Virus record (IMG/VR): IMGVR_UViG_3300046804_001959
DNA: 64,000 nucleotides
Source: a virus
Lineage: Duplodnaviria; Heunggongvirae; Uroviricota; Caudoviricetes
Strand: one strand, 5' to 3'
Positions 34,873-54,790 of this stretch are shown here, in pieces. A program made the position numbers and the translations under genes. Under the pieces are notes generated by a model that did no database searches, was not told where the DNA came from, and saw nothing but the letters and a program-made list of their open reading frames with translations. How positions within the stretch are numbered: the first letter of the stretch is position 1; each line of letters starts with the position of its first letter.

Positions 34873-36045
34873 ATGCAACTGACTGAACATTTTACCCTCG
34901 AAGAGATGACTGTATCGCCTACTGCGAAGAAGCTCGGTCTTTCGAACCAACCAACTCCTGAACATATCGAAAACATGAAGTACTGCTGCGAGAAGATCCT
35001 CGAACCAGTTCGTGCACACTTCGGCAAGCCGGTAAAGATCAACTCATCTTATCGTTCGCCTCTCGTCAACAAGGCAGTCGGCGGATCGAAGACATCACAA
35101 CATGTCAACGGTCAAGCTATTGACTTTGAGATCGAAGGTATCGATAACAAAACAGTCGCTGACTGGGTTGCTGACAACCTCGAGTTCGATCAAGTGATCC
35201 TCGAATTCTACACTGCTGGTGATAAGAATTCTGGTTGGGTACACGCTTCGATCAAGAAGGAAGGTGGCAATCGGAAACAACGTCTGATAGCGACAAAATC
35301 AAAGGCGGGCGGGACTGTTTACAAGCCTGTTGCTGACTTTGATCCTTCGACTCTACCTGGTCAATCTCAGCCAGCAGCTCCCGCAGCCCGGCGTCAAGCC
35401 ACTGCTCCAGCTCCTGCCGCTCAATCTGGTCTCGGTCCATTAGCACAACTCCAAGCTAAATGCGGCTTAACGCCTGATGGTAAATGGGGACAGGGTACTT
35501 ATCGTGCAGCACGTGACTACTTCAAGCTAACGAATGCACAAGCTGCTCACTTCTTCGGCCAGTGTGCACACGAGTCGAACAACTTCAAGGCATTCTCTGA
35601 GAATCTAAACTACTCTGCTCAAGGTCTACAAGGAATCTTCAAGAAGTACTTCCCGAACGCAGCTATCGCCGCTCAGTATGCTCGTAAGCCAGAGAAGATC
35701 GCTAACAAGGTATACGGTGGTCGCATGGGTAACGGACCAGAATCGAGCGGAGACGGCTACAAGTATCGTGGACGCGGACCAATTCAGCTGACCGGAAAGG
35801 ATAACTACACCGCATTCTCTCAAGCAGTTGGTCGTCCGGATGTTCTGACAAACCCAGATCTTGTTGCAGGCGAGTTGGCTTTCGAGTCAGCATTGTGGTT
35901 CTTCCGTAAGAATGGTCTATTGGCTATCGCTGATAAGGGAACATCAGTTCCTGTGATCACACAGATCTCGAAGCGAGTCAACGGAGGAACGATCGGTCTA
36001 GATGATCGAATCAAGAAGACTCAACAGTTCTTCGCATGGGGATAA
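34873..36045 (+). CDS. Two-domain endolysin: N-terminal peptidase M15 (VanY-like), linker, then C-terminal GH19 lysozyme/chitinase-like domain
   Basis: M15 motifs SSYRSPLVNKAVGGSKTSQHVNGQAIDFEI. A Pro/Ala-rich linker. GH19 motifs GQCAHESNNFK, YRGRGPIQLTGKDNY. The only convincing plus-strand gene. Confidence 0.75.
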   Translation: MQLTEHFTLEEMTVSPTAKKLGLSNQPTPEHIENMKYCCEKILEPVRAHFGKPVKINSSYRSPLVNKAVGGSKTSQHVNGQAIDFEIEGIDNKTVADWVADNLEFDQVILEFYTAGDKNSGWVHASIKKEGGNRKQRLIATKSKAGGTVYKPVADFDPSTLPGQSQPAAPAARRQATAPAPAAQSGLGPLAQLQAKCGLTPDGKWGQGTYRAARDYFKLTNAQAAHFFGQCAHESNNFKAFSENLNYSAQGLQGIFKKYFPNAAIAAQYARKPEKIANKVYGGRMGNGPESSGDGYKYRGRGPIQLTGKDNYTAFSQAVGRPDVLTNPDLVAGELAFESALWFFRKNGLLAIADKGTSVPVITQISKRVNGGTIGLDDRIKKTQQFFAWG

Positions 36046-38836: not shown

Positions 38837-39454
38837 TCAGCGTGAACGATAATTTGGTCTTGGAAATGAAAACTGCGCGTTTGATGTATTATCCTGATGA
38901 ACGTAGTGAAGGAACAGTTGGACTAATGAGTCGATCTCGAGAGCGTCTCTCCAGTGCCATTTTCCTCCGTAGTTTGTTCCTCCGTTAAAGATGATGGCAT
39001 CTCCTTCTTCAAGTTCCACTGGAATAGCATCGCTCTTATCATCTTTTTCGCTGAACCATAAAGCAACGTTGCCTTGTCCTCTCTTACACATAGTCAGAGT
39101 TAACGAATACTGACATGCTTCTCTGTCTCGATGAACGAGGAGCTCGGATCCATGATAATATTCTCTTGAATATGCATAAGAAGGAACCATATCATCGATT
39201 CCCCATATTTGCTCGGTAAGATGCTTGCAATAAAGGAGAATACTATCGTCAAAGATATTGTGTGCTACTCTTTCAATATTACCTGTTAAATTCGATCCAG
39301 TTTCGACTTCACGCAGAGTATCGCTCGTCTGCGTAATATCAATAAAAGATTTGTACAGTTCTATGATTTCTGGAGTAAGAACGTTTTTGATCTTCACGAA
39401 ACCATACTTTTCGAAGTGCTCTCTCAGAGCAGGCAATTCACTATCGTTAATCAT
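38837..39454 (-). CDS. 2OG-Fe(II) oxygenase (PhyH-like)
   Basis: LLVHRDRE (HxD) ... GGKWHWRD (distal His). 205 aa. Confidence 0.5.
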   Translation of the reverse strand: MINDSELPALREHFEKYGFVKIKNVLTPEIIELYKSFIDITQTSDTLREVETGSNLTGNIERVAHNIFDDSILLYCKHLTEQIWGIDDMVPSYAYSREYYHGSELLVHRDREACQYSLTLTMCKRGQGNVALWFSEKDDKSDAIPVELEEGDAIIFNGGTNYGGKWHWRDALEIDSLVQLFLHYVHQDNTSNAQFSFPRPNYRSR

Positions 39455-39460
39455 GTTTCC

Positions 39461-41518
39461 TCACTTACTTGTAGCTCTGTACACTCCGTCCCAGTTGAGT
39501 GGCTCATCTGTCTTCAGATCGTAGATTCGCTGTTCCATCATCTTGTAGTATGCAGCTAGTTCTCCTCCCCATAGAGGTCCCATTTCATGGACCATCGTCA
39601 TCGCACGATCCCAACGACCAGCACGATAGTGTCCAAGGAACAGATTGTGAGCTTTCTCTGCAGCGCTGTCCTTCTTCTCAAGAACAGTGAAGATACGAGC
39701 TGGTTCTGTCTTACCCTTCACAGCGATGAGATCGAGCTCGACTACTTGGTATACATCCCTAACCATGTCTGCTGTGACTGGCCCGGCAACGAGTTTAACT
39801 CCATAAGGTTTGGATTGACCTTCGAGACGAGAAGCCAGATTAACGCCGTCACCCAAGCAAGTATAATCGAAACGCTGATCACTACCCATATTGCCGACAA
39901 CCACAGTGGCAGTGTTAATGCCAAGACCCATCCCAAAAGCTGGGATCCCTTCTTTTTCGATTTCTGCATTGAACGCCTCCAAATCCTTTAACATATCCAT
40001 TGCCGTGCGTACAGCGTTCTTGGCATGGTCTGGATCGTCGAGCGGTGCGTTCCAAAATGCCATTTGTGCATCACCAATATACTTATCGAGTGTTCCCTTG
40101 TTATCGATGATACGCTTTGTCATGGCCGTCATGTAACGGTTCATGATCTTCGTCAGACCTTGTACATCTTCGCCGTAGTGTTCTGAGATGGTAGTAAATC
40201 CACGAACGTCAGTGAACATGATCGACAACTCTCTGCTTTCGCCACCCAACTTCAACAGTTCAGGGTTCTTCTGCAGTTTTTCTACCATGTCAGGCGAGAG
40301 GTATGTTCCAAACTGCTTCTTGATCTGCTGCTTCTGCAGATACTCGCTGATGAACTTGACTGTATAGATATGTACGTAGATCAGTAAAGTTGCGATTACG
40401 TTGAAGCTGATATCCAGTATTATACCATATGTGCCGAATAAGTAAACCGGTAAATACACATAGGCTGCAACGAGAGCAGCGATATATACATAAGAGAATC
40501 TAAAACGAGAGATCACTACCAGTGCCAGGAACAGAGCAAGAAACCCACCAAGATCTGCCAGCGGAACCCAGTTCGGGATCGAAACAGAGTCTCCGTTTAT
40601 CAGAGTCTCAAGAAGACTGGCTTGTAGCTGATGGGGATACTGCGCACCTGAAGGAGTCGCTACAGGGTTACTTAATCCAGCTGCAGTCACTCCAACAATC
40701 GCGATTTTACCTGTCAGATCAGGTAAAGGATCCGCACCGATTTCGTATGACTGGAATCGATAGTTCGGATTAATGAAAACTCGGCCGTACTCATCTGTCT
40801 TAATAGTTTCGAAAGAAGGAATTCGTAATGCCTCAACGCCCGTCTGATTTATCTTCGCTTGATACGAAGAGTCTCCTGCAGCTACACGGAGCATCTCTAC
40901 AGCAAATGACGGATAGTATTCGCCTGATGATTGAGATAGAAGAGGAACTCGGCGAACAACTCCATCTGATTCGGGAAGCGTCGACGTTACACCTACACCG
41001 ACGGCTGCTTCTTGAAGACTTTGTATATTACTTAGAACGCATGGGTATTGAGGAAGAAATTCAGTCGGCAGTCCGTCACCGATTACGGCAACCCCGGTAC
41101 GTCGAATCGTTTGCGTATTCTTTGATGGTGCACAATCGGACGTTACGGTCTGACTCAGAACAGTAGGATACTGATTTAAGGCATTAGCAAGAGCTGCGTC
41201 AGTCCCCATCCGATCAGGCTCAGGGTAAAGTATAGTACTGCCAACAAGAGCAGCCCCTCGACCATAAACCTCAGCATGAATGTCAGCGTAGACCTTACGC
41301 GGGAACGGATACTGTCCATATTTCTCGATCGCTTTCTCACCAATATTTATCAAAACGATCTGTTCCGACTTCTTCTGCTCTGACAGCATGAGATAGTCGT
41401 AAAACTTGAGACGTGTAGCTTCGACGAGGTAGGGATCTGAGATCTTGACAGCGAGAAGAATGGCAAAAGTAAACAGCGCCATCCACGGAGATAATAAAAG
41501 TTTAGTTACCTTTGACAT
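39461..41518 (-). CDS. CHASE2-domain sensor fused to a class III adenylate/guanylate cyclase. The likely start is MSKVTKLLL.
   Basis: N-terminal TM and a periplasmic CHASE2-like region, then 3-4 TM helices, then a cyclase domain with FTDVRGFTTISE and YIGDAQMAFWNAP. Confidence 0.75.
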   Translation of the reverse strand: MSKVTKLLLSPWMALFTFAILLAVKISDPYLVEATRLKFYDYLMLSEQKKSEQIVLINIGEKAIEKYGQYPFPRKVYADIHAEVYGRGAALVGSTILYPEPDRMGTDAALANALNQYPTVLSQTVTSDCAPSKNTQTIRRTGVAVIGDGLPTEFLPQYPCVLSNIQSLQEAAVGVGVTSTLPESDGVVRRVPLLSQSSGEYYPSFAVEMLRVAAGDSSYQAKINQTGVEALRIPSFETIKTDEYGRVFINPNYRFQSYEIGADPLPDLTGKIAIVGVTAAGLSNPVATPSGAQYPHQLQASLLETLINGDSVSIPNWVPLADLGGFLALFLALVVISRFRFSYVYIAALVAAYVYLPVYLFGTYGIILDISFNVIATLLIYVHIYTVKFISEYLQKQQIKKQFGTYLSPDMVEKLQKNPELLKLGGESRELSIMFTDVRGFTTISEHYGEDVQGLTKIMNRYMTAMTKRIIDNKGTLDKYIGDAQMAFWNAPLDDPDHAKNAVRTAMDMLKDLEAFNAEIEKEGIPAFGMGLGINTATVVVGNMGSDQRFDYTCLGDGVNLASRLEGQSKPYGVKLVAGPVTADMVRDVYQVVELDLIAVKGKTEPARIFTVLEKKDSAAEKAHNLFLGHYRAGRWDRAMTMVHEMGPLWGGELAAYYKMMEQRIYDLKTDEPLNWDGVYRATSK

Positions 41519-42965
41519 AGCTATATCCTGTACATGGTCCGGTCGAGCACGTAATCTCCATCTTGGCAGAGTCTGCCGCCGTAGAGTTCGTTTGCTGTAC
41601 CGTGACACCTATTCCAGGATTATTTATGATCAATTGAAACTGCTTGGTTGCGGATCCCTGCTGTGTGATATTAGCGTTTAGACCTCCAAAGGGAGCGGAG
41701 ACCTCAAGAAAGTGATTGCCTGTTCCCTGTTGCAATGCAGTCACAGCGTTGCCGTTTCCTAACAAGTTGAAGAATGCGGACTTAGATCCTGTATCATTCT
41801 GCTGAGCAGAGATCGTGTTGCCAGTACCAGAAGTTATGATCTCTGCATACTTGTTGTTATGCTGCTGAGTTAAGCTGAGTGTGTTGCCGCTTCCAGTAAT
41901 CGAAACTTCTGCTAAGTTCTTGCCGATAGCTGTCGTAGCTGTTCCTTGATTGATCGTAACAGTGTTGTTCGAACCGTTGATTACCATCGACTGGTTTCCG
42001 TTGACACCTCTTACTTGATTGTAGCCTGAGAACTGCTCGACATGAACGCTGTTAAAGTTGCCATAACTCTCGATATAGACTTTATTCTGAGTGATGGCAT
42101 TGGTCTGCTGGATCTTCGTCGACTGTGCATTACTGATCGCTGCAGCTGGATATGTAGGTTCGACTGGGCCTGGAGCTGGAGGTGGAGGAGCAGAAGATCC
42201 CGCGTTTGGTTGAACAGGAGTAAACGTAGTACCGTTCAGTAAAGTTGTTCCCTGTAACTGATCGATGAATAGGATAGGAGACAGCGCTGTGTCGCCAAGA
42301 TTGAACGAAGCAAAGCCGAGCGTGTATGTTCCATCTGACGGAACGGTGAACACTGCTACTTGCCATCCTGTTGCACCGTACGAGTTGGTAGAGTAGTTGC
42401 CTGTTCCAGTATTAGTGAACCCGAGAAGTGCAAAGTTCTGTGTCTGACCATTGATAGTAGGAACACCTGGGCCACCAGTCAGAGTGATCAGAGACCCGTC
42501 GTTGTATGGCATGTAGTCAGTTGAGACGTACTGCCATGCAAACGTGTAGGTAACACCTGCTTGTAGAGTAACCGTCTTACTGATCGAAGAAGCGTTGGTA
42601 GGCCACATGTTACCGTTCGAGTAGATCGTGTTCTTGATCGACGTGATAGCTGATCCTGCCAGACCGAGAGTCGTCATAGCATTATCAAACGTGGGAGAAC
42701 CGCCTCCAGCTTGAACGGATGCCATGTAGGTTCCGTATGGAGTGACTGTCCAGCACTTACCTCCACCTGGGCAGTAATTCTGCATACCCGTCGTAACTTG
42801 TACACCAGATCCGTTTGATCCCCATGTTGTACGAAGCGTAGTTGACCCGTTACTGACTGTCCAGCTCGAATAGTCTCCGTTCTCGAAACCGTAGTTGGTT
42901 ACTTGCGCGTGCACTACTTCACTGAAAAGTAGAAACAGTGCAGTTAGGATGTACCTTATCATCTT
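41502..42965 (-). CDS. Secreted protein: N-terminal beta-rich domain, Pro-rich linker, C-terminal curlin (CsgA-like) repeats. The likely start is MIRYILTALF.
   Basis: Signal peptide. APPPPAPGPVEP linker. Repeats of the type GNGNAVTALQQGTGN, SGNTLSLTQQHNN, TGNTISAQQNDTG match the curlin consensus S-x5-Q-x-G-x-G-N-x-A-x3-Q. Confidence 0.55.
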   Translation of the reverse strand, partial: KMIRYILTALFLLFSEVVHAQVTNYGFENGDYSSWTVSNGSTTLRTTWGSNGSGVQVTTGMQNYCPGGGKCWTVTPYGTYMASVQAGGGSPTFDNAMTTLGLAGSAITSIKNTIYSNGNMWPTNASSISKTVTLQAGVTYTFAWQYVSTDYMPYNDGSLITLTGGPGVPTINGQTQNFALLGFTNTGTGNYSTNSYGATGWQVAVFTVPSDGTYTLGFASFNLGDTALSPILFIDQLQGTTLLNGTTFTPVQPNAGSSAPPPPAPGPVEPTYPAAAISNAQSTKIQQTNAITQNKVYIESYGNFNSVHVEQFSGYNQVRGVNGNQSMVINGSNNTVTINQGTATTAIGKNLAEVSITGSGNTLSLTQQHNNKYAEIITSGTGNTISAQQNDTGSKSAFFNLLGNGNAVTALQQGTGNHFLEVSAPFGGLNANITQQGSATKQFQLIINNPGIGVTVQQTNSTAADSAKMEITCSTGPCTGYSYVKGN

Positions 42966-44110
42966 GTTCCTGACTCCTGAATCACAGTGATGTTGCCTTG
43001 AGGACGACCTGTTCCGGATGTGGTCCACTTGTCATCCATAAAGTTATAGACGTCTACGATCCCATTCTGTACAGAAACGAACTGTAGCTCTGTATCCTTT
43101 GGAAGCCATGTTACAACGAGTTGGTTCTTATCGTCAGAGATTCGCGAGTATACCCATCCAACCTGAACCTGTTTCTTAAAAGTAGGAGAAACGTTAGTAT
43201 AGATTGGTTCCTTCGGTCTCTGACCATCGTTGTACTCGGCATATACTTGTTGAAGTTCTTCTTGTGTAGGCATACGAATCACTGCCACAGCAACCTCTTC
43301 GGTGCTGTCTCCTCCAGTATTCGGATCTTTGTTATCGTCTGAAGCGGCTTTCGCTGGGTTGACATACTTCTTCAAAGCTTCACGTGCTGCATTGATAAGA
43401 GATTGACCGTCATCAGTCTCAAGGGGAGCGATCTGAATGTTGTTGTCCATGCCTTTCATCGTAGGATTAATTACGACAGGAGGAGCAGGAGGAGCATATC
43501 CGTTTTCTACAACGGTAGCTTGGAACGGCTTTGTCAGAGATACAACACCCGCAGCAGTCATGACATCGATCGCTCCAGCTGGACACTCGAAGTTGATCTT
43601 TGTGATATCTTTGTCGTTGTAGCATTCTGGAACGAGAACGACTGTAGATCTGCCTGCTTCGTCGACTGACATGACGAAGTCTGTACCTCTTACGGCAATC
43701 GTCGCGGTGGGTGTCCGTATACCAACACCGCGAGCGTTACCATGAGCGATAGCACCAGAAGTGTATCGCGCTGTTCCCAGAGCCAGCTTAAGACCGAGCT
43801 TACCTTTGCTCTTATTGTTTCCATCATAGACGAAATCATCGATGAGTAACCTTGAGTTCTGTGTGATGTTGACGGTTGTAGCATCCACGAAGGTGATCTT
43901 GAATCGACCTTGTGAATTGGTAGAAACTGTGTCGTTCTTTTCGATGCCAGAACCTGGAGCAGCCGGAACTACTTTCGCTCCGCGCTTGACGGTTCCTCCG
44001 CCCTTAAACTCCGATATCGATCCCACACCAGCAAAGGCAGGGACCGATATCAGGAGTAAGAGATTAATGACCAGTCTTGATATTAAACGTACCATTTGAA
44101 CCCACTGCAT
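42959..44110 (-). CDS. FecR-domain secreted/periplasmic protein
   Basis: Signal peptide. FKITFVDATTVNITQNSRLLIDDF...ALGTARYTSG...TATIAVRGTDF matches the FecR domain pattern. Confidence 0.55.
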   Translation of the reverse strand: MQWVQMVRLISRLVINLLLLISVPAFAGVGSISEFKGGGTVKRGAKVVPAAPGSGIEKNDTVSTNSQGRFKITFVDATTVNITQNSRLLIDDFVYDGNNKSKGKLGLKLALGTARYTSGAIAHGNARGVGIRTPTATIAVRGTDFVMSVDEAGRSTVVLVPECYNDKDITKINFECPAGAIDVMTAAGVVSLTKPFQATVVENGYAPPAPPVVINPTMKGMDNNIQIAPLETDDGQSLINAAREALKKYVNPAKAASDDNKDPNTGGDSTEEVAVAVIRMPTQEELQQVYAEYNDGQRPKEPIYTNVSPTFKKQVQVGWVYSRISDDKNQLVVTWLPKDTELQFVSVQNGIVDVYNFMDDKWTTSGTGRPQGNITVIQESGTR

Positions 44111-44837
44111 TGATATTTACTACGGTTTCTGAAGCTCCGTATTGCTGGGTTGTAACGGTATTAAGCGAACCTGTTAGGTTGACGTAAAGCGAGTGACCAA
44201 ACGTTCCACCGAGACCCGTCTGTGTAACGTTGAACGCGTTATAGTCTCCTGTTACAAGAAGAGTCTGAGTAGCGTTAGGCGAGAGAGCGTCGATGGTGAA
44301 AGTGTTGTTGTCACCGCTGATGTCCATCGAGTTACGAATGTTTGCACCCGAACCATGGAATGTGAGCGAGTTTGAGTCACCAGTAAAACGAGCGTTCATA
44401 TCAAACTGATTACAGATCGAATCAGTTACGAGAGTGCCGCAACGAATGTCTGCGGTGTTGAGATCACCGATCTGACGAATGGTTGCAGTCGCGATGCCTG
44501 TACCACCTGTAGCAGATACTAGACCCATGTACAGCTGGTTGCCGTTACCTGTTTGAATAGCGATAACGCTTTGATTATCACCGCGAAGGTAGATAGGATC
44601 GTTGACATCACCGATGATGTTAGCAGTGCCGGTCTGTACAACGTTAACGTCGACGTTACCACCTTCTTGATCGATGTAGACCTTGTTGGTAGTCGCCACT
44701 GCTGCAGCTGTGACTTCGTTCGGAGAAGTAGTTACGATTGTAGGTGGAGTTGGAGCTGTAGGCAACACGGCCTGTGCGATCGCAGAGGTTCCATAAACAA
44801 GAGCAGCACCAACGATGAAAGACTTAACGAGTCTCAT
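44064..44837 (-). CDS. Curlin-repeat protein (CsgA/CsgB-like amyloid subunit). The likely start is MRLVKSFIVG.
   Basis: Signal peptide ending AIAQA. Repeated Q-x-G-x-(G)-N units: VYIDQEGGNVDVNVVQTGTANI, IAIQTGNGNQ, NAFNVTQTGLGG, NTVTTQQYGAS. Confidence 0.55.
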   Translation of the reverse strand: MRLVKSFIVGAALVYGTSAIAQAVLPTAPTPPTIVTTSPNEVTAAAVATTNKVYIDQEGGNVDVNVVQTGTANIIGDVNDPIYLRGDNQSVIAIQTGNGNQLYMGLVSATGGTGIATATIRQIGDLNTADIRCGTLVTDSICNQFDMNARFTGDSNSLTFHGSGANIRNSMDISGDNNTFTIDALSPNATQTLLVTGDYNAFNVTQTGLGGTFGHSLYVNLTGSLNTVTTQQYGASETVVNINAVGSNGTFNIKTGH

Positions 44838-45648
44838 TGGTTGTTTCCTTCTGTTTAAATCTCCATAGATTCTTCTTTTCACCATCCTTGATCAACTCAA
44901 CAACGGCCGTTTCTATGGCTGAACGGATCGCATAACTACCTGCTTCGTTCGATGTCTGCTGACCATCGAATTCAAAGGCCTTGGTGGCCATATCAAAGAA
45001 TTTAAATGCCGTAACTCCCTCGGAAGTAGAGAGCACGTTCTTTTCTACAGTTACAGACGTCAGCACTTCACCGGTCTGAACCGAAACGAGGCGCATACTA
45101 ATCGTAACTTGATCTTCTGAGTACTGTTGATACGGGCCGATGCCGAGGAATCGAGCTCCTGTACCACCGGTCTTGGTGTTCGAACTATAGTCGATGATTC
45201 CTCCTTCAAGGATCAGACCGGCTACCATCAGAGGAGGAAGAGGTTCGGCGTTCTCACCTGCAACTTGCTCTCTCATCTGACGAACGAGCTGACGTTCTTT
45301 GATCAGCGAATCGATACCTACACGCTCGACTGGACGAAACCACTTTCCGCCTCCAACATCTGCCAAAGTTTTGATAACGTAGGCATCTGCACCTTGAGTC
45401 ACAGCAGTTGAGAAGCTGGCTTGAGTAGCAGAAGGCTTACGTTGTCCTGTACGATCGGTAAACGAGTAGATGGCGATAGGAATTACCTGACCGTCGAGTT
45501 CGGGTAAGTTCTTGAAGAGTTTCGGGTTTGCAAATCTTTCTACCTCAGCATCTGATCTCAAGATATAAGACTGGTTAGCCATCGGATGCAGTGCACCTAC
45601 GCAGCCTGATGTAGCAAGAAGAATCGGAAGTACGAGTAACTTTTTCAT
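44824..45648 (-). CDS. csgG: Curli production/transport lipoprotein CsgG
   Basis: Lipobox LLATSGC. IAIYSFTDRTGQRKPSATQASFSTAVTQGADAYVIKTLADVGGGKWFRPVERVGIDSLIKERQLVRQ aligns convincingly with E. coli CsgG (VSVYNIQDETGQFKPYPASNFSTAVPQSATAMLVTALKDSRWFIPLERQGLQNLLNERKIIR). Confidence 0.8.
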   Translation of the reverse strand: MKKLLVLPILLATSGCVGALHPMANQSYILRSDAEVERFANPKLFKNLPELDGQVIPIAIYSFTDRTGQRKPSATQASFSTAVTQGADAYVIKTLADVGGGKWFRPVERVGIDSLIKERQLVRQMREQVAGENAEPLPPLMVAGLILEGGIIDYSSNTKTGGTGARFLGIGPYQQYSEDQVTISMRLVSVQTGEVLTSVTVEKNVLSTSEGVTAFKFFDMATKAFEFDGQQTSNEAGSYAIRSAIETAVVELIKDGEKKNLWRFKQKETTNETR

Positions 45649-45657: not shown

Positions 45658-46098
45658 TTAGAATGCAAACGTGGCGATGGGAACAGTCACGACGGTAGTG
45701 TTACCTTTTGCATCTACGACAGTCAACTTTACTTCAGTACCAGTCTTGACGTAACTGATCGTGTTTCCGTCAAGATTAAATGTTCCGGCTTGTGCAGAAC
45801 CTTCTGCAAATAGATTGTTAGAAAGCTGTGTAGCCAACTGAGCATACACTTGGCTGGTGAACAGCGCCATGAACTTAGCAAGAGGAGTGTTAGCTGCCTC
45901 TGCTTTGGCAAGAGCAGCTTTCGCTGCTTCAGCATCCTTGATAGCTTGTTCACGAGATCTTTCTTGAGCGTCTATCGATTGCACATGAGAAGACCACCCG
46001 TAGCCATTAAAGCTCGGGCTCTTAAACTGTTGTACTATCGGATCAGCTTTTGCTTGGCTGCTTGTCAGCAGGGCCAGCAGGAGCAGACTCTTTCTCAT
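45658..46098 (-). CDS. CsgF-like curli assembly protein
   Basis: Signal peptide. The mature N-terminus QQFKSPSFNGYGW parallels CsgF (FQFRNPNFGGNPN). A beta-rich C-terminus ends in an aromatic residue. Confidence 0.5.
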   Translation of the reverse strand: MRKSLLLLALLTSSQAKADPIVQQFKSPSFNGYGWSSHVQSIDAQERSREQAIKDAEAAKAALAKAEAANTPLAKFMALFTSQVYAQLATQLSNNLFAEGSAQAGTFNLDGNTISYVKTGTEVKLTVVDAKGNTTVVTVPIATFAF

Positions 46099-46172: not shown

Positions 46173-46439
46173 TCAATTTTTAGGGATATTGTCACTGTGA
46201 TCCTCCTTAATCTGCAATACTACACTCACCTTCTGGTTTAGTCTAATTAAATCGTTGTCTAACATGCGAATACGATCGATCAAAGCGATAAGAATGACAT
46301 TCGTCTCGCCAATCAACGGCATCAGTTTATCTGTAACAAATTTGTAAATAAAGAACACGAAGTATCCCATGCCTACTGAGGCAACGATAGGAAATCCGTA
46401 CTGTTTTACTAGTTCAGCGACTACATTTAAATCCATCAA
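46173..46439 (-). CDS. Small membrane protein, holin-like (BhlA/UviB-type architecture), paralogue 1
   Basis: 88 aa. N-terminal TM QYGFPIVASVGMGYFVFFIY followed by a coiled C-terminus. Paralogous to the next gene. Confidence 0.4.
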   Translation of the reverse strand: MMDLNVVAELVKQYGFPIVASVGMGYFVFFIYKFVTDKLMPLIGETNVILIALIDRIRMLDNDLIRLNQKVSVVLQIKEDHSDNIPKN

Positions 46440-46723
46440 TCTCTTCTCGCATCGTTCTTGCCATCGGCTCGAGCGATACGATCGAGATCCGGCTTCAGTC
46501 CAAGTGCTGAACTTACAACCGCATCCACGCGAATGATATCATGGTTCATGGTCTTGACACGATTGTCGAGGCCCATGATGATACCTTGCATTCCTTTAAT
46601 AGCTTTCACAACACTTTCTAAAATATAATTGATGACAAAATAAACGAAAACTCCACCGAGCAAAGCAGCCGCGATGGGGAAACCGACATCAGCAATTAAC
46701 TTAAATATAGCGTCGTAGTTCAT
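46436..46723 (-). CDS. Small membrane protein, holin-like, paralogue 2
   Basis: 95 aa. DVGFPIAAALLGGVFVYFVINY, then MGLDNRVKTMNHDIIRVD. Shares GFPI...D..I.R...L..D.IR motifs with paralogue 1. Confidence 0.4.
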   Translation of the reverse strand: MNYDAIFKLIADVGFPIAAALLGGVFVYFVINYILESVVKAIKGMQGIIMGLDNRVKTMNHDIIRVDAVVSSALGLKPDLDRIARADGKNDARRD

Positions 46724-46738
46724 ACGACTTATTTATAA

Positions 46739-47758
46739 TTACCTCGTCACCGAGGCACTACACTTCGTGCATATATTGTTATAAGCCCGATCGATGGTTT
46801 CTACGTGCTTATCACTGAACCACATCTCACGAATATCTTGTTCAATGATGTTGCCAAACACGTAGTCAAAATTGTAGTCGTTACAGCAGAGAATAGCATC
46901 GCCTCTTGAATTGACGCTCAACCACTCGTAGATCCTATCACCCCAGTTTTGACAACCTACGACCGTACGGTTCTTCATTCGATCTTCCATGTACTTGGCT
47001 TCGCTGATGTAGTCAGCGATGAGACCAGTACGATCGATGAGATCTGATTTCTCAATATCAAAGTTAGGGAACATCTTCGCTGCCAACTCTACCTGCTGTT
47101 GATGTTCACCGGTTCTGATATCAAGATCGATATCTAACTCATCGAACTTCGGACCCTTCTGAAGAGATCCGGTCTTGAAAGATACTTCATCGAGACCGTT
47201 GATGATAAGCTTGACTCTACCTTGAAGCTTGCGTGTAACAGCATGCTTATGTAGGTTCTGAAGATTCGCCATCAAGTCATCGAATCTCTTCTCAGGAAAA
47301 CCAGAGCGCTTCGACCACAGCTCTGCATCAGAGATGATAGGCACGTTGAGGCCGATCTCTTGGATTACAGAAGGAGTATACTTGTTGATGATATCGAGTT
47401 TCTCTGGTGTAAGGTTGACACCGTTACTCAGAATGAACGTCTTCAGACCGTAGTGCTTAGCCAGCTCGAGAAGCTTCTCGAAGTCCTTGTAAAGGAGTAC
47501 TTCGCTGTAGTGAGTAGTCAGAAATAGATCGAACCGCGGACTGACTACTCCGTTGCCGTTTGGAGTGTTCCTTTCAACTATCAGCTTACGGAATATCTTT
47601 TCGACATCCTCGATCGGCATCTGCTGTTTGCCTTCTTCAGGCTGAGGAATGTATCTAACAGGACAATACCAGCACTTGGCATTACAGAACCCAAAGAGGT
47701 CGATAGCCAAACGCTGGATCTGATAGGACTTCAAACGAGAACGAATAAATTGAGACAC
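46739..47758 (-). CDS. Radical SAM enzyme with a C-terminal SPASM-like cysteine cluster
   Basis: CNAKCWYC is CxxxCxxC. The C-terminal CCNDYNFDYVFGN...CTKCS cluster is SPASM/twitch-like. 339 aa. Confidence 0.7.
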   Translation of the reverse strand: MSQFIRSRLKSYQIQRLAIDLFGFCNAKCWYCPVRYIPQPEEGKQQMPIEDVEKIFRKLIVERNTPNGNGVVSPRFDLFLTTHYSEVLLYKDFEKLLELAKHYGLKTFILSNGVNLTPEKLDIINKYTPSVIQEIGLNVPIISDAELWSKRSGFPEKRFDDLMANLQNLHKHAVTRKLQGRVKLIINGLDEVSFKTGSLQKGPKFDELDIDLDIRTGEHQQQVELAAKMFPNFDIEKSDLIDRTGLIADYISEAKYMEDRMKNRTVVGCQNWGDRIYEWLSVNSRGDAILCCNDYNFDYVFGNIIEQDIREMWFSDKHVETIDRAYNNICTKCSASVTR

Positions 47759-49832: not shown

Positions 49833-50474
49833 TTATCCATTGGCTCGCAGCCAGTTTAGGATATTTTCAGGTGAAGTCTCACCGTAAGGATCGGTCTCGC
49901 AGTTGTCTTCGAAGCCCGGCTCGATGAACCACTTCTCGATCTTGCCGTTGTTGACGATGCATGCATAGCGCCACGAACGTTCACCGAAACCGAGGTTGTC
50001 CTTCTGAACTGCCATCTGCATATCACGAGTAAAGCGAACAGAACCGTCAGGGATCATCTTCACCTTCTTGATCTTCTGCTGCTTAGCCCAGCAATTCATC
50101 ACGAAAGCATCGTTGACCGACACACAGACGATGTCGTCGATGCCGAGTTCCTTGAATGCCTTGTAATTTTCTTCAAAGCCAGGAAGTTGATACGTAGAAC
50201 ATGTGGGAGTGAAGGCACCTGGAAGAGAGAAGAGGACTACGCGCTTCTTGGCAAAGTAGTCGAAAGAACTCTTATCTTCCCAACGAAACGGATTCGGGCC
50301 TTCGATCGAATCGTCTCTTACGCGTGTCTTGAATACCACATTAGGCACAACTTCAGGGAGTTCCTGAACCGTGCCGTTTTCAAACTTATGCCAATAGCGC
50401 TTGACTGGAATTGTTTCTGCCATAATATTCTCCATGAATGAAAGCGGAGTGGAAGGATTTGGTTGTACCTTCAT
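49833..50474 (-). CDS. Peroxiredoxin (Prx5-like / AhpC-TSA family). The start is probably internal (MENIMAE or MAETIP).
   Basis: FSLPGAFTPTCS contains the peroxidatic Cys. The thioredoxin fold continues with DDIVCVSVNDAFVMNCWA. Confidence 0.75.
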   Translation of the reverse strand: MKVQPNPSTPLSFMENIMAETIPVKRYWHKFENGTVQELPEVVPNVVFKTRVRDDSIEGPNPFRWEDKSSFDYFAKKRVVLFSLPGAFTPTCSTYQLPGFEENYKAFKELGIDDIVCVSVNDAFVMNCWAKQQKIKKVKMIPDGSVRFTRDMQMAVQKDNLGFGERSWRYACIVNNGKIEKWFIEPGFEDNCETDPYGETSPENILNWLRANG

Positions 50475-50981
50475 GACCTAGCCAATTACCTATCGTAATC
50501 TTCGGTCAACGACTCGTTCGCCGGTTGAGCAGGAGGACCACTCCCCGAGTCTGCCTTACCCCCACTGGCGAGGGTGTTATTCAGCCACACTCCTTACGCC
50601 ACCCGTCGGCAGCGATATCTATGTTGCCCTGCGGGATCCACCCCCGCGTACCAGCCGCATGGCCGGATCTTAGTCTCAATGCACGTATGTCGTGTCCCAG
50701 ATCAAGGGCAAAAACTGGTCGGCAGTTTTGTATCATACCGAGGATACGTGGACTTACAGAGACCGGCATTACCCGTAAAGATATCTCGCCACGTTATGAA
50801 GGCTACTGAGGTGTTGCCGCGCTACTGGCAGTCATTTCGCTCTTTACGTTCCCAGCTTCCCCCATATCGCTGAGTCACCACGGGAACTTCCTTCATCCGT
50901 TTTGTTTTCAACGCACACGCCGACGAACTTAATCCCCTGCCCTAACGTTGGTTCAGCAGACGGTACTGCTTATTCTTAAAC

Positions 50982-51056
50982 TGGCTCCTCGAATAGGATT
51001 CGAACCTATGACCGATCGGTTAACAGCCGATTGCTCTACCGCTGAGCTATCGAGGA
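50982..51056 (-). tRNA. tRNA-Asn (anticodon GTT)
   Basis: Hand-folded cloverleaf. Acceptor TCCTCGA/TCGAGGA, D arm GCTC/GAGC, anticodon loop CTGTTAA, T loop TTCGAAT, CCA encoded. Confidence 0.8.
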
Positions 51057-51077
51057 ATGAAACTCTTTATATTCTGA

Positions 51078-51112
51078 ACCTACATTATATATTAAATAAT
51101 GTACATGGTAAA
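51078..51112 (-). promoter_or_regulatory. Promoter: TGTACA-N17-TAGGTT immediately upstream of tRNA-Asn
   Basis: The motif lies about 20 nt 5-prime of the tRNA 5-prime end. Confidence 0.5.
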
Positions 51113-51222
51113 AGACGCAGTTTTTTACAGAAACCGCCATCCCAAAAACTGGAACCTGCATTATACCCAAGCAGCTTGGATGCTAGCTATCTATTGTCCG
51201 GTATCTCCGACATTTCGATCTT

Positions 51223-51300
51223 TGGTACCCTCGGTAGGATTCGAGCCTACAACCTCTCGCTTCGTAGGCGAGTGCTCTATTCCAGTTGAGCTACGAGGGC
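51223..51300 (-). tRNA. tRNA-Arg (ACG)
   Basis: Hand-folded. Anticodon stem CTCGC/GCGAG, anticodon loop CTACGAA. Confidence 0.75.
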
Positions 51301-51470
51301 ATTAAATGGCCGCCAATCCTTTGCAGGGACTTTAACACATATAGCCAAGATAATTGGTTGGCCGACCCATTTTTCTATATGTGCTGCTAGCCCTCCGGTA
51401 GCGACTAGACGTCTTACGCTTTCCGAACTCTAGCTGTCGTCGAGGATTCGAACCCCAACGGGCGATAAAC

Positions 51471-51545
51471 TGGTACCCGGTGACGGGATTGAACCGCCGA
51501 CCCTCTCGGTGTAAACGAGACGCTCTACCGCTGAGCTAACCGGGC
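51471..51545 (-). tRNA. tRNA-Val (TAC)
   Basis: Hand-folded. Anticodon stem TCTCG/CGAGA, anticodon loop TTTACAC. Confidence 0.75.
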
Positions 51546-51546
51546 A

Positions 51547-51630
51547 TGGTACTCCAAGAGGGACTCGAACCCCCACGCACTAGGCACTAGTTCCTAAGAC
51601 TAGCGTGTCTACCATTCCACCATTGGAGCA
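51547..51630 (-). tRNA. tRNA-Leu (TAG), type II
   Basis: Hand-folded. Anticodon stem CTAGT/ACTAG, loop CTTAGGA. Long variable arm TGCCTAGTGCGTG. Confidence 0.75.
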
Positions 51631-51857
51631 TTCAAAACTTTGGGATCTTGTGTCTTGCTTCTCATAGGTGAGATTTAACGGTTCTACCAGCAGTCCAACA
51701 TTCAGCGGGTTCCCTATTCACTTCGCTTAGTCCCAAACTTGGCTGACCCGTGGGACTCGAACCCACCTTAGCGCTTATATCTTTGCATAATACTCCCGAG
51801 CATACAATGCAAAGACCCCGGGGCGCATTCTCACCTGACTTAGGGCCAATAAACTCA

Positions 51858-51933
51858 TGGTGCCTTCGGAGGGAGTCGAACCCCCGACACGTGGATCTTC
51901 AATCCACTGCTCTACCAACTGAGCTACAAAGGC
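51858..51933 (-). tRNA. tRNA-Phe (GAA)
   Basis: Hand-folded. Anticodon stem GTGGA/TCCAC, loop TTGAAGA. Confidence 0.8.
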
Positions 51934-51959
51934 AAAACTTCTTAGAAGAATGCACTGAT

Positions 51960-52345
51960 TGCCTATTAACACGCATCTTAAGCGGGACTTACATCAATAC
52001 ATTCATCTAAGAAGTCTTAGATCAGGATGAGATTACTCCTGAGTAATGAGAGTCTTTGAGCCGTACCGAATCCCTTGCGAGGATTGTTAACCCGTTATCC
52101 ACTCGAGCTGTCGCCAGTCATCGAGTATCTCTCAGTGCTGCCTTTTTTAGCGTCTGGCGTTTGACGCGTCACATCATGCTATTCGACCATCAATCTTCCG
52201 CCTGCCTTGCGAGCAGTTCGAAGGCGCTAACCTCCTACGTCTTCAATCCAATCAATCACTTCCGCCTTGCGAGCTTCCATGAACCACATTCCTTTCGGTG
52301 TGGTATTAAGCACCTTTCACATGATGCCGGGACAGTCTTTGCGTT
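51960..52345 (-). ncRNA. Candidate structured ncRNA segment A (ORF-free, between tRNA-Phe and the class I TAG tRNA)
   Basis: No credible ORF. Repeated CTTGCGAG hairpin-loop modules, for example AATCC-CTTGCGA-GGATT and CTGC-CTTGCGA-GCAG. Lies inside the tRNA transcription unit. Confidence 0.4.
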
Positions 52346-52349
52346 TTTA

Positions 52350-52425
52350 TGGCGTGCAAAGTTGGGATCGAACCAACTACCTACATATCCTAAAAATGTT
52401 GCTCTACCAGATGAGCTATTTGCAA
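52350..52425 (-). tRNA. Class I tRNA with anticodon TAG (identity undetermined; U1xC72 mismatch)
   Basis: Hand-folded. D arm GCTC ATCTGGTA GAGC, anticodon arm ACATT-TTTAGGA-TATGT, T arm GTTGG TTCGATC CCAAC. Short variable arm despite a Leu-type anticodon. Confidence 0.5.
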
Positions 52426-52429
52426 AGAA

Positions 52430-52885
52430 CCTACCAAGATGTGCTGTCCCTGTCGCTTCACTACCTTTTGAGTAGCAAAATACAACACACCTCATGTCTT
52501 TCGGCTTGCGGCCTAATTAACCATGCTTCGCGGATCCGGTTATCCCTTCTTCGCTTGCATTACTACATCGCCTTTCCTTGCGAGGTCAGACTCTGTAACT
52601 ACCTATTAGTGTACAGCATTCGTTGACTTGGTTTGTTGCAGCTCGGCCACCACAGCCTCTTGGAACTCAGCGACTGCCTCTGTTCCTATCCTTTCGGACT
52701 ACAACTTCAACTTACTGCCTCACGCCATCCTACTGACGCTGAGTTGCTTTCGACCGAGATCGAGTCAACTCACACTTAGGCTTGTATAGATGGACTCTTG
52801 CGAGCGCAGCTGCGTAGGCTTTACTGCTTTGGCCTCCGTTACCGGAAGTTACCCTAATGACGCTATACCGCCATTCGTTATTTTC
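52430..52885 (-). ncRNA. Candidate structured ncRNA segment B (ORF-free, downstream of the promoter motif at 52888..52926)
   Basis: No credible ORF. Further CTTGCGAG / GCTTGCGGC modules. Preceded by a GTGTACA-N17-TAGAGT promoter. Confidence 0.4.
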
Positions 52886-52887
52886 TT

Positions 52888-52926
52888 ACTCTATCAAAGA
52901 ATTCAGATAATGTACACCCTTAAAAC
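52888..52926 (-). promoter_or_regulatory. Promoter: TGTACA-N17-TAGAGT firing into ORF-free segment B and the tRNA cluster
   Basis: Same architecture as the other copies. Confidence 0.55.
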
Positions 52927-52945
52927 GCACATTAGCTAAAATAAT

Positions 52946-53021
52946 TGGTGGAGAATATCGGACTCGAACCGATCACCTCCTGCTTGCAAAGCAGGCGCTC
53001 TCCCAGATGAGCTAATCCCCC
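52946..53021 (-). tRNA. tRNA-Ala (TGC)
   Basis: Hand-folded. Anticodon stem CCTGC/GCAGG, loop TTTGCAA. Confidence 0.8.
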
Positions 53022-53028
53022 ACTAACT

Positions 53029-53103
53029 TGGTGCCGCAGGATGGAATCGAACCACCGACAAGTGGCTTATGAGACCACCGCTCTACCGCTGAGCTACCGC
53101 GAC
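53029..53103 (-). tRNA. tRNA-Met (CAT). The elongator, initiator or Ile-lysidine type is not resolved.
   Basis: Hand-folded. Anticodon stem GTGGT/GCCAC, loop CTCATAA. Confidence 0.75.
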
Positions 53104-53108
53104 GAAAC

Positions 53109-53182
53109 TGGAGCGACCGAAGGGATTCGAACCCTCTCCATCAGCTTGGAAGGCTGAGTCCTCTCCCAGGAGAACGGTCGCA
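53109..53182 (-). tRNA. tRNA-Gly (TCC)
   Basis: Hand-folded. Anticodon stem TCAGC/GCTGA, loop CTTCCAA. Unusual D arm. Confidence 0.7.
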
Positions 53183-53257
53183 TGGTGCCGGTTGTGGGAT
53201 TCGAACTCACGACCTACCGCTTACAAGGCGGTTGCTCTACCACTGAGCTAAACCGGC
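53183..53257 (-). tRNA. tRNA-Thr (TGT)
   Basis: Hand-folded. Anticodon stem ACCGC/GCGGT, loop CTTGTAA. Confidence 0.8.
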
Positions 53258-53262
53258 AAAAA

Positions 53263-53338
53263 TGGTCGGGAAGACAGGGATCGAACCTGCGACCTCGCGG
53301 TCCCAAACCGCGCGCTCTCCCACCTGAGCTACTTCCCG
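53263..53338 (-). tRNA. tRNA-Pro (TGG)
   Basis: Hand-folded. Anticodon stem CGCGG/CCGCG, loop TTTGGGA. Confidence 0.8.
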
Positions 53339-53389
53339 TTGTGGCTTATTATATATACGAGATATTTCAAGCCGCTGAAATTAATTTAC

Positions 53390-53533
53390 TGTCAACCAAC
53401 TTCCACATGATCTGCTCGACGATGTTGGCTTCTTCATCCATGTCTGCTTCAAACAAAGCAGTCTGGAGAGCGCCGACACTGCCATCGACCAGTTCATCAA
53501 AGTACGGTGCATCTTGTTCAAAAACGTTCATAA
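53390..53533 (-). CDS. Small acidic protein (47 aa) embedded in the tRNA cluster
   Basis: Own translation: MNVFEQDAPYFDELVDGSVGALQTALFEADMDEEANIVEQIMWKLVDSK, with an AAGGA RBS. The coordinates are approximate (the ORF was not in the track). Confidence 0.4.
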
Positions 53534-53547
53534 TATATCCTTTACAA

Positions 53548-53623
53548 TGGATGCCCCTTCAGGGATCGAACCTGAACTCTTCGGAATCAAAATCCGACGT
53601 GTTGCCAATTACACCAAGGGGCA
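53548..53623 (-). tRNA. tRNA-Gln (TTG)
   Basis: Hand-folded. Anticodon stem TCGGA/TCCGA, loop TTTTGAT. Confidence 0.8.
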
Positions 53624-53630
53624 ATATAGA

Positions 53631-53716
53631 TGGTGGGTGACCAGGGAATCGAACCCCGTATGTCTTTCGACGCCAGATTTACAGTCTGGTGTAGTCGCCA
53701 ATGCTACTCGTCACCC
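53631..53716 (-). tRNA. tRNA-Tyr (GTA), type II
   Basis: Hand-folded. Anticodon stem CCAGA/TCTGG, loop CTGTAAA. Long variable arm. Confidence 0.75.
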
Positions 53717-53722
53717 AAAACT

Positions 53723-53798
53723 TGGTGGACCCCGTGGGGCTCGAACCCACGACCTACAGGTTAAAAGCCCGTTGCTCTACCTACTGAGCTAGAGGTCC
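53723..53798 (-). tRNA. tRNA-Lys (TTT)
   Basis: Hand-folded. Anticodon stem ACGGG/CCTGT, loop CTTTTAA. Confidence 0.8.
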
Positions 53799-53802
53799 GA
53801 AA

Positions 53803-53878
53803 TGGTAGACGATACAGGGCTCGAACCTGTGACCTAGGGCTTAAGAGGCCCGCGCTCTACCTACTGAGCTAATCGTCC
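53803..53878 (-). tRNA. tRNA-Lys (CTT)
   Basis: Hand-folded. Anticodon loop CTCTTAA. One mismatch at the base of the anticodon stem. Confidence 0.6.
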
Positions 53879-53886
53879 ATTAAACT

Positions 53887-54120
53887 TTAACCGATGTAGA
53901 TCCGATATCCATCAGAATCTACAGGTGCACCGACCGAGCGGCGCTCGATGTAGTACGAATCGATGAATCGATCACCGTCGCGAGTGTACACACCATGGGC
54001 AGTCCGTGCTTCTTCTTCAGAAGCGTACACACCCAGGAGTTCCGAACCTTCGTAGTCGAACTCGCCTAACAGCACAAAAACTTCCATGACAAAATTCCTT
54101 TTCAATCTGTATATTCTCAA
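53887..54120 (-). CDS. hypothetical protein
   Basis: 77-aa ORF between tRNA groups. A promoter motif lies upstream. Confidence 0.4.
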   Translation of the reverse strand: MRIYRLKRNFVMEVFVLLGEFDYEGSELLGVYASEEEARTAHGVYTRDGDRFIDSYYIERRSVGAPVDSDGYRIYIG

Positions 54121-54175
54121 CCTACTACGCAGTAGATAATTTGTACACCCTAAAAACGAACTTTATCGAAAAAAA

Positions 54176-54252
54176 CTGGTAGGGACGGCGGGACTCGAAC
54201 CCGCACTGTGAGGATTTTAAGTCCCCTGACTCTGCCTTTGGCCTACGTCCCC
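54176..54252 (-). tRNA. tRNA-like gene with a Leu (TAA)-type anticodon loop, but a short variable arm and an irregular D arm
   Basis: Hand-folded. Acceptor GGGGACG/CGTCCCT. Anticodon arm GGGGA-CTTAAAA-TCCTC. T arm GCGGG TTCGAGT CCCGC. The D region GGCCAAAGGCAGAGTCA is non-canonical. Confidence 0.45.
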
Positions 54253-54328
54253 ATGGGGTGAAGGAGGAGTTTCGAAATCCCGACCTCTCGGTCCACAACC
54301 GAGCGCTCTGCCTCTGAGCTACCAACAC
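54253..54328 (-). tRNA. tRNA-His (GTG)-like with G-1, two U-U mismatches in the acceptor stem, and a weak T stem
   Basis: Hand-folded. G-GTGTTGG TA GCTC... Anticodon arm CTCGG-TTGTGGA-CCGAG. The 3-prime acceptor strand is CCTTCAC, where CCAACAC would be expected. Confidence 0.5.
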
Positions 54329-54329
54329 C

Positions 54330-54416
54330 ATGGCGGAACGTCTGGGAATCGAACCCAGTCTACCCATAAGGTAGTACAGGTTAGCAACCTGCTGCATTAC
54401 CATCCTGCCCACGTTC
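54330..54416 (-). tRNA. tRNA-Ser (GCT), type II
   Basis: Hand-folded. Acceptor GGAACGT/ACGTTCC. Anticodon arm GCAGG-TTGCTAA-CCTGT. Long variable arm. Confidence 0.7.
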
Positions 54417-54422
54417 CTGAAA

Positions 54423-54499
54423 CTGGTGACCCCACCGGGTGTCGATCCCGGTTCTCAGCTGTGAAAGAGCTGGATTCTAGCCAACGTAAACTATGGGGC
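54423..54499 (-). tRNA. tRNA-Glu (TTC)-like (atypical D and T loops)
   Basis: Hand-folded. Anticodon arm CAGCT-CTTTCAC-AGCTG. T arm CCGGG ATCGACA CCCGG. Acceptor GGCCCCA/TGGGGTC. Confidence 0.5.
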
Positions 54500-54584
54500 C
54501 AAAGTGGCTGCAGCGCAAGTATGGGCCATTGACGAACAATGAAGCATTGGCTGGCAATTTAAACGGGACACGTACCACATAAAA

Positions 54585-54674: not shown

Positions 54675-54679
54675 CAAAT

Positions 54680-54755: not shown

Positions 54756-54790
54756 CACATAAAGAGTTTCTAACGATTTCAAAGAACAGA

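Follow-up and report, generated by a model that had tools for sequence, protein, structure and literature searches.

The type VIII (curli) secretion system (T8SS) of phages was noted in 2020 in pelagimyophages of the type of Pelagibacter phage HTVC008M and in 2022 in Methylophilales phage Melnitz (Buchholz et al.), and in both cases the cyclase and FecR genes that accompany the curli genes were left undiscussed. The two Melnitz genes are labelled 'adenylate/guanylate cyclase' and 'FecR domain protein' in GenBank. Wittmers et al. 2022 described a module of one or two 'HK' genes, CsgF, CsgG, CsgA/B, FecR, a second CsgA/B and an adenylate cyclase, found in podo- and myoviruses and reported to move between them as a block (PMC9599517). 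Trees of the module point to Alphaproteobacteria, FecR and the adenylate cyclase lie outside bacterial curli operons, and expression of the module was seen in metatranscriptomes; FecR was read as an iron regulator and the small proteins as histidine kinases (PMC9599517). Here, the cyclase and the FecR-domain protein encoded by a further module of this kind were analysed. It lies in a 64,000 nucleotide stretch of DNA, referred to below as the window, from a tailed phage of the Caudoviricetes (IMG/VR record IMGVR_UViG_3300046804_001959).

The window phage is marine and T4-like, with a family B DNA polymerase 51% identical to the polymerases of cyanomyophages. Its module resembles those of HTVC008M and Melnitz in gene order and in protein families, including the PHROGs families, and the phage cyclases form one clade. 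However, the window cyclase is only 39-42% identical, and the FecR protein 34-35% identical, to their counterparts in these isolates. The window has a guanine-plus-cytosine (GC) content of 47% and an array of 26 tRNA genes, as compared with 30-37% GC and 0-2 tRNAs in the isolates. For the published pelagimyophages, the values are 30-35% GC and 0-2 tRNAs, and the 30-35% GC filter used for them would exclude the window lineage. The GC content and the tRNA array thus set this phage apart from the published pelagimyophages. The module itself is already published, and the window is a further, higher-GC and tRNA-rich member. PHROGs has families for all proteins of the module, entered as function unknown. 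When the region was compared by megablast with 50,697 phage records, no match was obtained, the relatives existing at the protein level only, and an exact-sequence look-up of the window cyclase matched no record. A 166-kb metagenomic contig is syntenic with the window, the genes for UvsX, a DnaB-type helicase, a dCMP deaminase and a small heat-shock protein being arranged alike in both.

On the evidence given below, the cyclase and the FecR-domain protein probably represent a phage version of a bacterial two-part envelope-signalling unit, coupled to late T8SS export. The features that concern the pair are as follows.

39461..41518, minus strand: CHASE2 receptor adenylyl cyclase of 685 aa, as assigned by Pfam, PDB relatives and predicted topology (phrog_35576, 6e-238).
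40568..41440, minus strand: predicted periplasmic CHASE2 sensor domain of the cyclase, residues about 27-317.
39704..40234, minus strand: class IIIb cyclase catalytic domain, residues 429-605, with D437, K479, D483, T553, N560 and R564.
42959..44095, minus strand: secreted FecR-domain protein of 378 aa (Pfam FecR; phrog_37870).

A first-pass annotation, made from the letters of the sequence, had given the 39461..41518 product a CHASE2-like region, a class III cyclase domain and transmembrane (TM) helices, and had described the 42959..44110 product as a secreted FecR-domain protein. Both descriptions were borne out, as the Pfam profiles proposed there as a check all exceed their cut-offs. CHASE2 (PF05226) matches residues 24-332 of the cyclase (E 6.1e-36, 124.7 bits, cut-off 26.3) and Guanylate_cyc (PF00211) matches residues 429-605 (E 5.3e-18, 65.7 bits, cut-off 21.9), and the catalytic domain includes the motifs FTDVRGFT at residues 435-442 and DKYIGDA...MAFWNAP from residue 478. 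A permissive Pfam scan of the C-terminal tail of the cyclase returned noise only. For the start of the gene, ATG 41518 was favoured over the longer GTG 41608 of the list of open reading frames (ORFs), because the homologues are 681-693 aa in length and align from residue 1 over their full length.

Hydropathy placed TM segments at residues 8-26 and, three in number, within 318-384. An AlphaFold2 (AF2) model of residues 1-400, built on an alignment of 55 diverse homologues, is highly confident, with a mean predicted local distance difference test (pLDDT) score of 95.3 and a predicted template modelling (pTM) score of 0.91. It includes helices at residues 11-27 (TM1), 318-336, 342-364 and 371-399, and an alpha/beta domain at 49-308. 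With four TM helices and both termini cytoplasmic, the CHASE2 domain would therefore be periplasmic. Ahead of the catalytic domain, a conserved linker at about residues 391-428 can be aligned to that of the phytochrome-cyclase fusion 6fht. Relatives of this protein are numerous; more than 7,500 metagenomic homologues of the cyclase were found, and the CHASE2 homologues number 2203 representatives at E<=1e-10.

In a PDB sequence search, every one of the top solved relatives of the catalytic domain is an adenylyl cyclase (E 9e-32 to 2.5e-25). When the domain was aligned to CyaC of Spirulina (1wc0) and CyaB of P. aeruginosa (3r5g), the six catalytic residues were identical, namely the metal sites D437 and D483, the substrate-specifying K479 and T553, and the transition-state N560 and R564. 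The metal-binding Asp pair and the transition-state Asn and Arg, loss of which would have spoken against a working cyclase, are therefore present. The sensor or N-terminal parts of CyaC and CyaB differ from those of the window cyclase and have no CHASE2 domain. Both enzymes are bicarbonate-stimulated, which is a lead only as regards the window cyclase. Class IIIb adenylyl cyclases have Lys together with Thr or Ser in place of the Asp of classes IIIa and IIIc in the Linder and Schultz classification, and guanylyl cyclases carry Glu and Cys at the substrate positions. The choice between cyclic AMP (cAMP) and cyclic GMP (cGMP) had been left open in the first-pass annotation; the Lys479/Thr553 pair, as in CyaC and CyaB, favours cAMP as the predicted product. 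The cyclase is thus predicted to be active, of class IIIb and cAMP-forming. The D-K-D-T-N-R signature is kept in 74 of 84 phage homologues, five others having the K/S substrate pair, and the pair in the bacterial relatives is K/S in 64 and K/T in 20.

The FecR family (PF04773) matches residues 60-160 of the second protein (E 1.6e-12, 48.1 bits, cut-off 24). While the domain call stood, the start at 44110 is probably incorrect; the homologues from metagenomes include more than 100 of 378 aa at 100% coverage, and ATG 44095 is hence the most likely start. The N-terminus resembles a signal peptide over about residues 1-22 (...LLLLISVPAFA/GVGS). The FecR domain with a beta-rich extension occupies about residues 25-210 and is conserved between phage lineages, as judged by alignment with the Melnitz and HTVC008M proteins. 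It includes an invariant Cys158/Cys171 pair, which fits a periplasmic location. The remainder consists of a low-complexity linker and a poorly conserved region at 290-378. In total, more than 3,100 metagenomic homologues were found.

To assess the association of the two genes in cellular genomes, 84 bacterial loci were compiled, of which 4 are on plasmids and 80 came from 185,579 species genomes that were scanned. The first-pass annotation had stated that CHASE2 cyclases are often encoded next to FecR-like proteins in bacteria, and this was upheld. A FecR ORF lies within 10 kb of the CHASE2 cyclase gene in 39 of the 84 loci and within 500 nt in 18. Per 100 kb, there are 22 such ORFs in the first 500 nt as compared with 0.9 at 5-10 kb, an approximately 24-fold difference. 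In each of the four plasmids with the best full-length homologues, from Ensifer, Ruegeria, Paracoccus and Shinella, a FecR-domain gene adjoins the cyclase gene. The pairing of FecR and CHASE2 genes in bacteria is real. The rhizobial plasmid homologues are 28-35% identical to the window cyclase over the full length. Genes for TPR proteins (in the Ensifer and Paracoccus loci) and for proteins that bind cyclic nucleoside monophosphates (cNMPs) are often found near the plasmid cyclases, and a cNMP-binding ORF lies within 10 kb in 20 of the 84 bacterial loci. On the Ensifer and Shinella plasmids (L003 and L006), the FecR/CHASE2-cyclase pair is located beside export ABC transporters of the NHLP bacteriocin type and small cNMP-binding proteins, a setting that points to peptide export under the control of cAMP.

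In phages, the neighbours of the pair are different. Among 49 IMG/VR loci in which the sequence upstream of the cyclase gene extends for at least 5 kb, FecR, CsgG and CsgF are all encoded upstream of the cyclase in 47. The order csgF, csgG, FecR, cyclase is found in 44 of these 47, FecR is on the cyclase strand in 46, and FecR is directly upstream of the cyclase (at most 500 nt away) in 24, as in bacteria. In the window lineage, a second curlin-like gene separates the two. The identical six-gene order is found in Melnitz, HTVC008M and the 166-kb metagenomic contig. The viral loci span 32-48% GC, and the longest contig among them is 337 kb. When 164 CHASE2 cyclases were placed in a neighbour-joining tree, the 81 phage sequences grouped in one clade that includes no bacterial tip. 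Because the linkage is conserved in phages, the phage cyclases form a single clade and none of the 84 bacterial loci has a csgG neighbour, the joining of the FecR/CHASE2-cyclase pair to the T8SS looks phage-specific and since retained. Modules with cyclase, FecR and CsgG genes were also seen on IMG/VR contigs of 235-337 kb (L103, L106, L108, L129 and L162), which are either of jumbo-phage size or mis-binned.

Both genes are within one closely packed operon in a run of minus-strand genes. In order of transcription, the operon includes genes for two small TM proteins, CsgF, CsgG, a curlin-repeat protein, the FecR protein, a large curlin-like protein and the cyclase. The features other than the pair are as follows.

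46730..46737, minus strand: match to the T4-type late-promoter consensus TATAAATA, 7 nt upstream of the gene for the first small TM protein, proposed head of the operon.
46436..46723, minus strand: small single-TM protein of 95 aa, TM residues 13-31 (phrog_18771, 6e-30).
46173..46439, minus strand: paralogous small single-TM protein of 88 aa (phrog_18771).
45658..46098, minus strand: CsgF homologue (Pfam CsgF, 2.2e-18; phrog_35372).
44824..45648, minus strand: CsgG homologue with a lipoprotein-type N-terminus, the outer-membrane channel of the T8SS (Pfam CsgG, 1.9e-52).
44064..44837, or to 44885 with the alternative start, minus strand: curlin-repeat protein with a signal peptide (Curlin_rpt, 21.4 bits, cut-off 20.7).
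41502..42962, minus strand: large curlin-like protein of 486 aa with a signal peptide, start ATG 42962.

The CsgG homologue also matches the NCBIfam CsgG model at 2.1e-50, which is under the equivalog cut-off. The curlin-repeat protein has three Q-x-G-x-x-N motifs where 0.13 would be expected. In the large curlin-like protein, the C-terminal 186 aa score 19.9 bits with Curlin_rpt, just below the 20.7 cut-off, and the repeats are visible in the sequence. Its N-terminal domain of ~280 aa (42063-42905, minus strand) belongs to no Pfam or PHROG family and has a weak PA14 match (E 0.023). The combination of such a domain with curlin-like repeats may represent a fibre subunit to which a binding domain has been added. 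The small TM proteins, which stand where PMC9599517 places its 'HK' genes, gave no Pfam, NCBIfam, holin or histidine-kinase signal in family and permissive Pfam scans.

The first-pass annotation had placed the cyclase and a FecR partner directly adjacent to curli-like genes. The proximity of both to the curli genes is correct, though the two are not adjacent to one another, as the gene for the 486-aa curlin-like protein lies between them. The stop codon of the FecR gene overlaps the ATG of this gene in an ATGA, and its own stop overlaps the start of the cyclase gene by 17 nt. The spacing between csgF and csgG is 9 nt and contains a Shine-Dalgarno sequence. A gene for a PhyH-like dioxygenase (38837-39454), which has no relation to curli, follows the cyclase gene with spacing just as tight. 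A search for terminators across the gene run produced no convincing candidate that would interrupt it.

The window contains eight exact matches to TATAAATA, all of them on the minus strand (13098, 17938, 28657, 36756, 46730, 49640, 54959 and 61620), as compared with 1.0 expected, and none of 100 shuffles reached eight. The motif heads the module in four phages, i.e. the window phage, its 166-kb relative (L008), Melnitz and HTVC008M. The site is equivalent in the 166-kb relative and in Melnitz, and is directly before csgF in HTVC008M. From what is generally known of T4 late promoters, we take TATAAATA to be a probable promoter. A scan for sigma-70 promoters found 16 where shuffles gave 18.6, i.e. 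no enrichment. Late co-transcription of the module can reasonably be inferred from these data.

Other elements were recorded around the module. A gene for a radical SAM/SPASM-domain protein adjoins the late-promoter motif on its upstream side (46739-47758, minus strand), and a run of four weak radical-SAM genes is found downstream of the cyclase on a related 171-kb contig (L007). The 26 tRNA genes are at 50982-55718 on the minus strand and cover most amino acids. Inside this array is a full-length GOLLD RNA (52024-52493, minus strand; Rfam RF02032, 171.4 bits against a gathering score of 150, model positions 1-416), in which a tRNA-Leu(tag) is embedded at 52350-52425. A manA RNA motif (RF01745, 62.5 bits against 55.2) was found at 50442-50614, also on the minus strand, and its 3' end overlaps the start of a peroxiredoxin-like ORF at 49833-50474.

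Taken as a signalling unit, the pair would operate as follows. The cyclase would be a receptor-type, probably homodimeric class IIIb enzyme, with a cytoplasmic N-terminus, TM1, the periplasmic CHASE2 domain and three further TM helices, from which a helical linker would lead to the cytoplasmic catalytic domain that converts ATP to cAMP. The FecR protein would be exported by Sec and kept in the periplasm or envelope, where, by analogy with the neighbouring genes in bacterial loci, it may be a co-sensor or ligand for CHASE2. The ancestral pair would have come from a proteobacterial, probably alphaproteobacterial, lineage and have been joined in phages to the T8SS module, and the whole set would be transcribed from a single compact operon in the late phase of infection. 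Most likely, the pair would convert an envelope cue tied to export or fibre assembly into a rise of cytoplasmic cAMP, which would act on host cAMP-binding proteins. The coupling to production of the neighbouring amyloid fibre, as suggested in the first-pass annotation, is favoured by the synteny in 47 of 49 viral loci, the overlapping reading frames and the late-promoter motif, but not by the bacterial loci, and is put forward here as probable rather than as established.

Several results weigh against this assignment. No csgG or csgF gene lies within 10 kb of a CHASE2 cyclase gene in any of the 84 bacterial loci, and curli coupling is thus without cellular precedent among them. In searches of limited sensitivity, no cNMP-binding protein was found among the window ORFs (phmmer with four queries, including E. 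coli CRP), in 80 viral loci (jackhmmer) or in the phage collection (tblastn with one query), and a host protein would therefore have to read the cAMP signal. The AF2 model of the FecR protein, built on a 31-sequence alignment of two clades, is poor, with a mean pLDDT of 47; only residues 23-110 are confident and the C-terminal region is not resolved in it. Five Melnitz-like cyclases (L001, which is Melnitz, L160, L162, L166 and L168) have K/D as the substrate pair and Ser in place of the transition-state Asn, giving the signature D-K-D-D-S-R, and in this one lineage, which has a cultured OM43 host, activity may be altered or reduced. Furthermore, in a correlation of distances FecR follows CsgG and CsgF (r 0.75-0.80) better than it does CHASE2 (r 0.51). 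The partial correlation in the FecR-CHASE2 mirror-tree is 0.15 when CsgG and CsgF are controlled for, which speaks neither for nor against co-evolution of the two, and the cyclase domain correlates poorly with everything. Podovirus modules often keep FecR without the cyclase (PMC9599517). As FecR tracks CsgG and CsgF and is more constant than the cyclase in the published survey, it possibly has a cyclase-independent role, and it may act for the secretion system, the cyclase being an optional reader.

The first alternative to be considered is that the FecR-cyclase pair is a self-contained device for host takeover, in which cAMP reprogrammes host metabolism or transcription and the proximity to curli genes is incidental. 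The bacterial pair is indeed free-standing in many contexts, with a csgG neighbour in 0 of 84 loci, the region between the replication and structural modules has been described as hypervariable in pelagimyophages, and the curli-unrelated PhyH-like dioxygenase gene (38837-39454) follows the cyclase gene equally tightly. However, an incidental position is disfavoured by linkage in 47 of 49 loci in a conserved order on viral contigs of 32-48% GC, by a FecR gene that sits between two curlin genes and shares an ATGA overlap, and by the reported transfer of the module in one piece between myo- and podoviruses (PMC9599517). This explanation is unlikely, though it deserves some weight.

Two further explanations connect the pair to the timing of late events, and each is doubtful. 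According to one, the FecR-like protein is primarily a component of the T8SS that replaces the missing CsgE and reports the flux of curlin or the state of the CsgG pore to CHASE2, so that an outside-in path of the phage times fibre deployment or lysis. The phage would then encode a transmembrane receptor whose second messenger acts in its bacterial host. This idea is based on the closer tracking of CsgG and CsgF by FecR and on the constancy of FecR in the published survey. A permissive Pfam scan of the C-terminal part of the FecR protein returned noise only, with no CsgE-like signal. According to the other, the pair senses the state of the envelope or superinfection and times lysis via the two small TM proteins, which would be holin- or antiholin-like. 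At the head of the operon there are indeed a late-promoter motif and genes for two small single-TM paralogues, Buchholz et al. argued from synteny in Melnitz that the phage CsgGF pore times lysis, and the partner of CHASE2 in Burkholderia bears a peptidoglycan-binding LysM domain (PMC5192318). Against it, the small proteins match no holin family, no link between cAMP and a lysis protein is known, and an endolysin-like gene (34873-36045) sits elsewhere, on the opposite strand.

A role of the FecR-like protein as an iron regulator of the ferric citrate type, tying the module to iron or siderophore uptake, has in its favour the name of the Pfam family and the suggestion in PMC9599517. The protein has the periplasmic PF04773 domain alone, with what looks like a cleavable signal peptide at its start. 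Since this signal peptide is followed by a domain beginning near residue 25-55, there is no room for a cytoplasmic anti-sigma domain or a TM anchor as in an anti-sigma regulator of the E. coli FecR type. The cluster includes neither a gene for an extracytoplasmic function sigma factor (FecI) nor one for a TonB-dependent receptor (FecA), the bacterial counterparts pair with CHASE2 receptors of kinase or cyclase output, and the next-best family matches are Leptospira FecR-domain lipoproteins rather than iron regulators. As judged from its predicted architecture, the phage protein does not qualify as an E. coli-type ferric-citrate regulator and should be read as grouping better with CHASE2-partner proteins, an iron role being very improbable.

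It is less credible still that the cyclase makes another nucleotide (cGMP, or cCMP or cUMP as in Pycsar) or is catalytically dead, as, although PycC models of PADLOC match the catalytic domain (best 1.3e-25), Lys479/Thr553 and all catalytic residues equal those of proven adenylyl cyclases, no PycC structure is among the 43 PDB sequence matches, and no gene for a cNMP-binding effector is adjacent in the window or the 80 viral loci. The Pycsar reading was rejected, since a PycC match is expected of any class III domain and no ORF for a cNMP-binding effector was found in these sequences.

Receptor-type signalling proteins are rare in phages, and here an abundant ocean phage group would carry a complete periplasm-sensing adenylyl cyclase together with its partner, both within an operon for fibre secretion. 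Should envelope and cAMP be coupled as proposed, infected cells of abundant marine bacteria would gain a late sensory pathway along with a surface structure, with possible effects on aggregation, lysis timing and carbon export.

The closest cellular counterparts are found in three groups of bacteria. In S. meliloti, CyaD1, CyaD2 and CyaK combine CHASE2 with a class III cyclase as in the window, and CyaD1 adjoins the FecR-domain protein SMc02177. Deletion of CHASE2 renders CyaD1 constitutively active, CHASE2 thus being an inhibitory sensor, and SMc02177 was dispensable for signal perception in that study. The S. meliloti system differs in being cellular, with Clr as the receiver, a plant-derived cue and no link to a T8SS. 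A Campylobacterota cluster co-encodes a CHASE2 adenylyl cyclase and a FecR-domain protein and is horizontally spread, as in phages, but it adds a phosphodiesterase and a TPR protein where the phage module has csgF, csgG and curlin genes (PMC9239204). In the 'BiofilmReg' biofilm-switch operon of Burkholderia, the gene for a periplasmic LysM-FecR protein immediately precedes that for a CHASE2 receptor, and the operon has been linked to a biofilm or matrix phenotype; unlike the phage pair, this system is cellular, has a histidine kinase and response regulator as output, and carries LysM on the partner (PMC5192318). FecR of the E. coli FecIRA system shares the periplasmic PF04773 domain with the phage protein, while its anti-sigma domain and anchor are not found in the phage protein, nor its partners FecI and FecA in the gene cluster. 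As compared with the published descriptions of the phage module, the present work adds the CHASE2 sensor, a term absent from all three papers, and a predicted intact class IIIb site of the cAMP type. It also adds the putative late-promoter motif, the reading of FecR as a probable CHASE2 partner, and the assignment of the 'HK' proteins as small TM proteins that, as judged by profile scans, carry no kinase signature.

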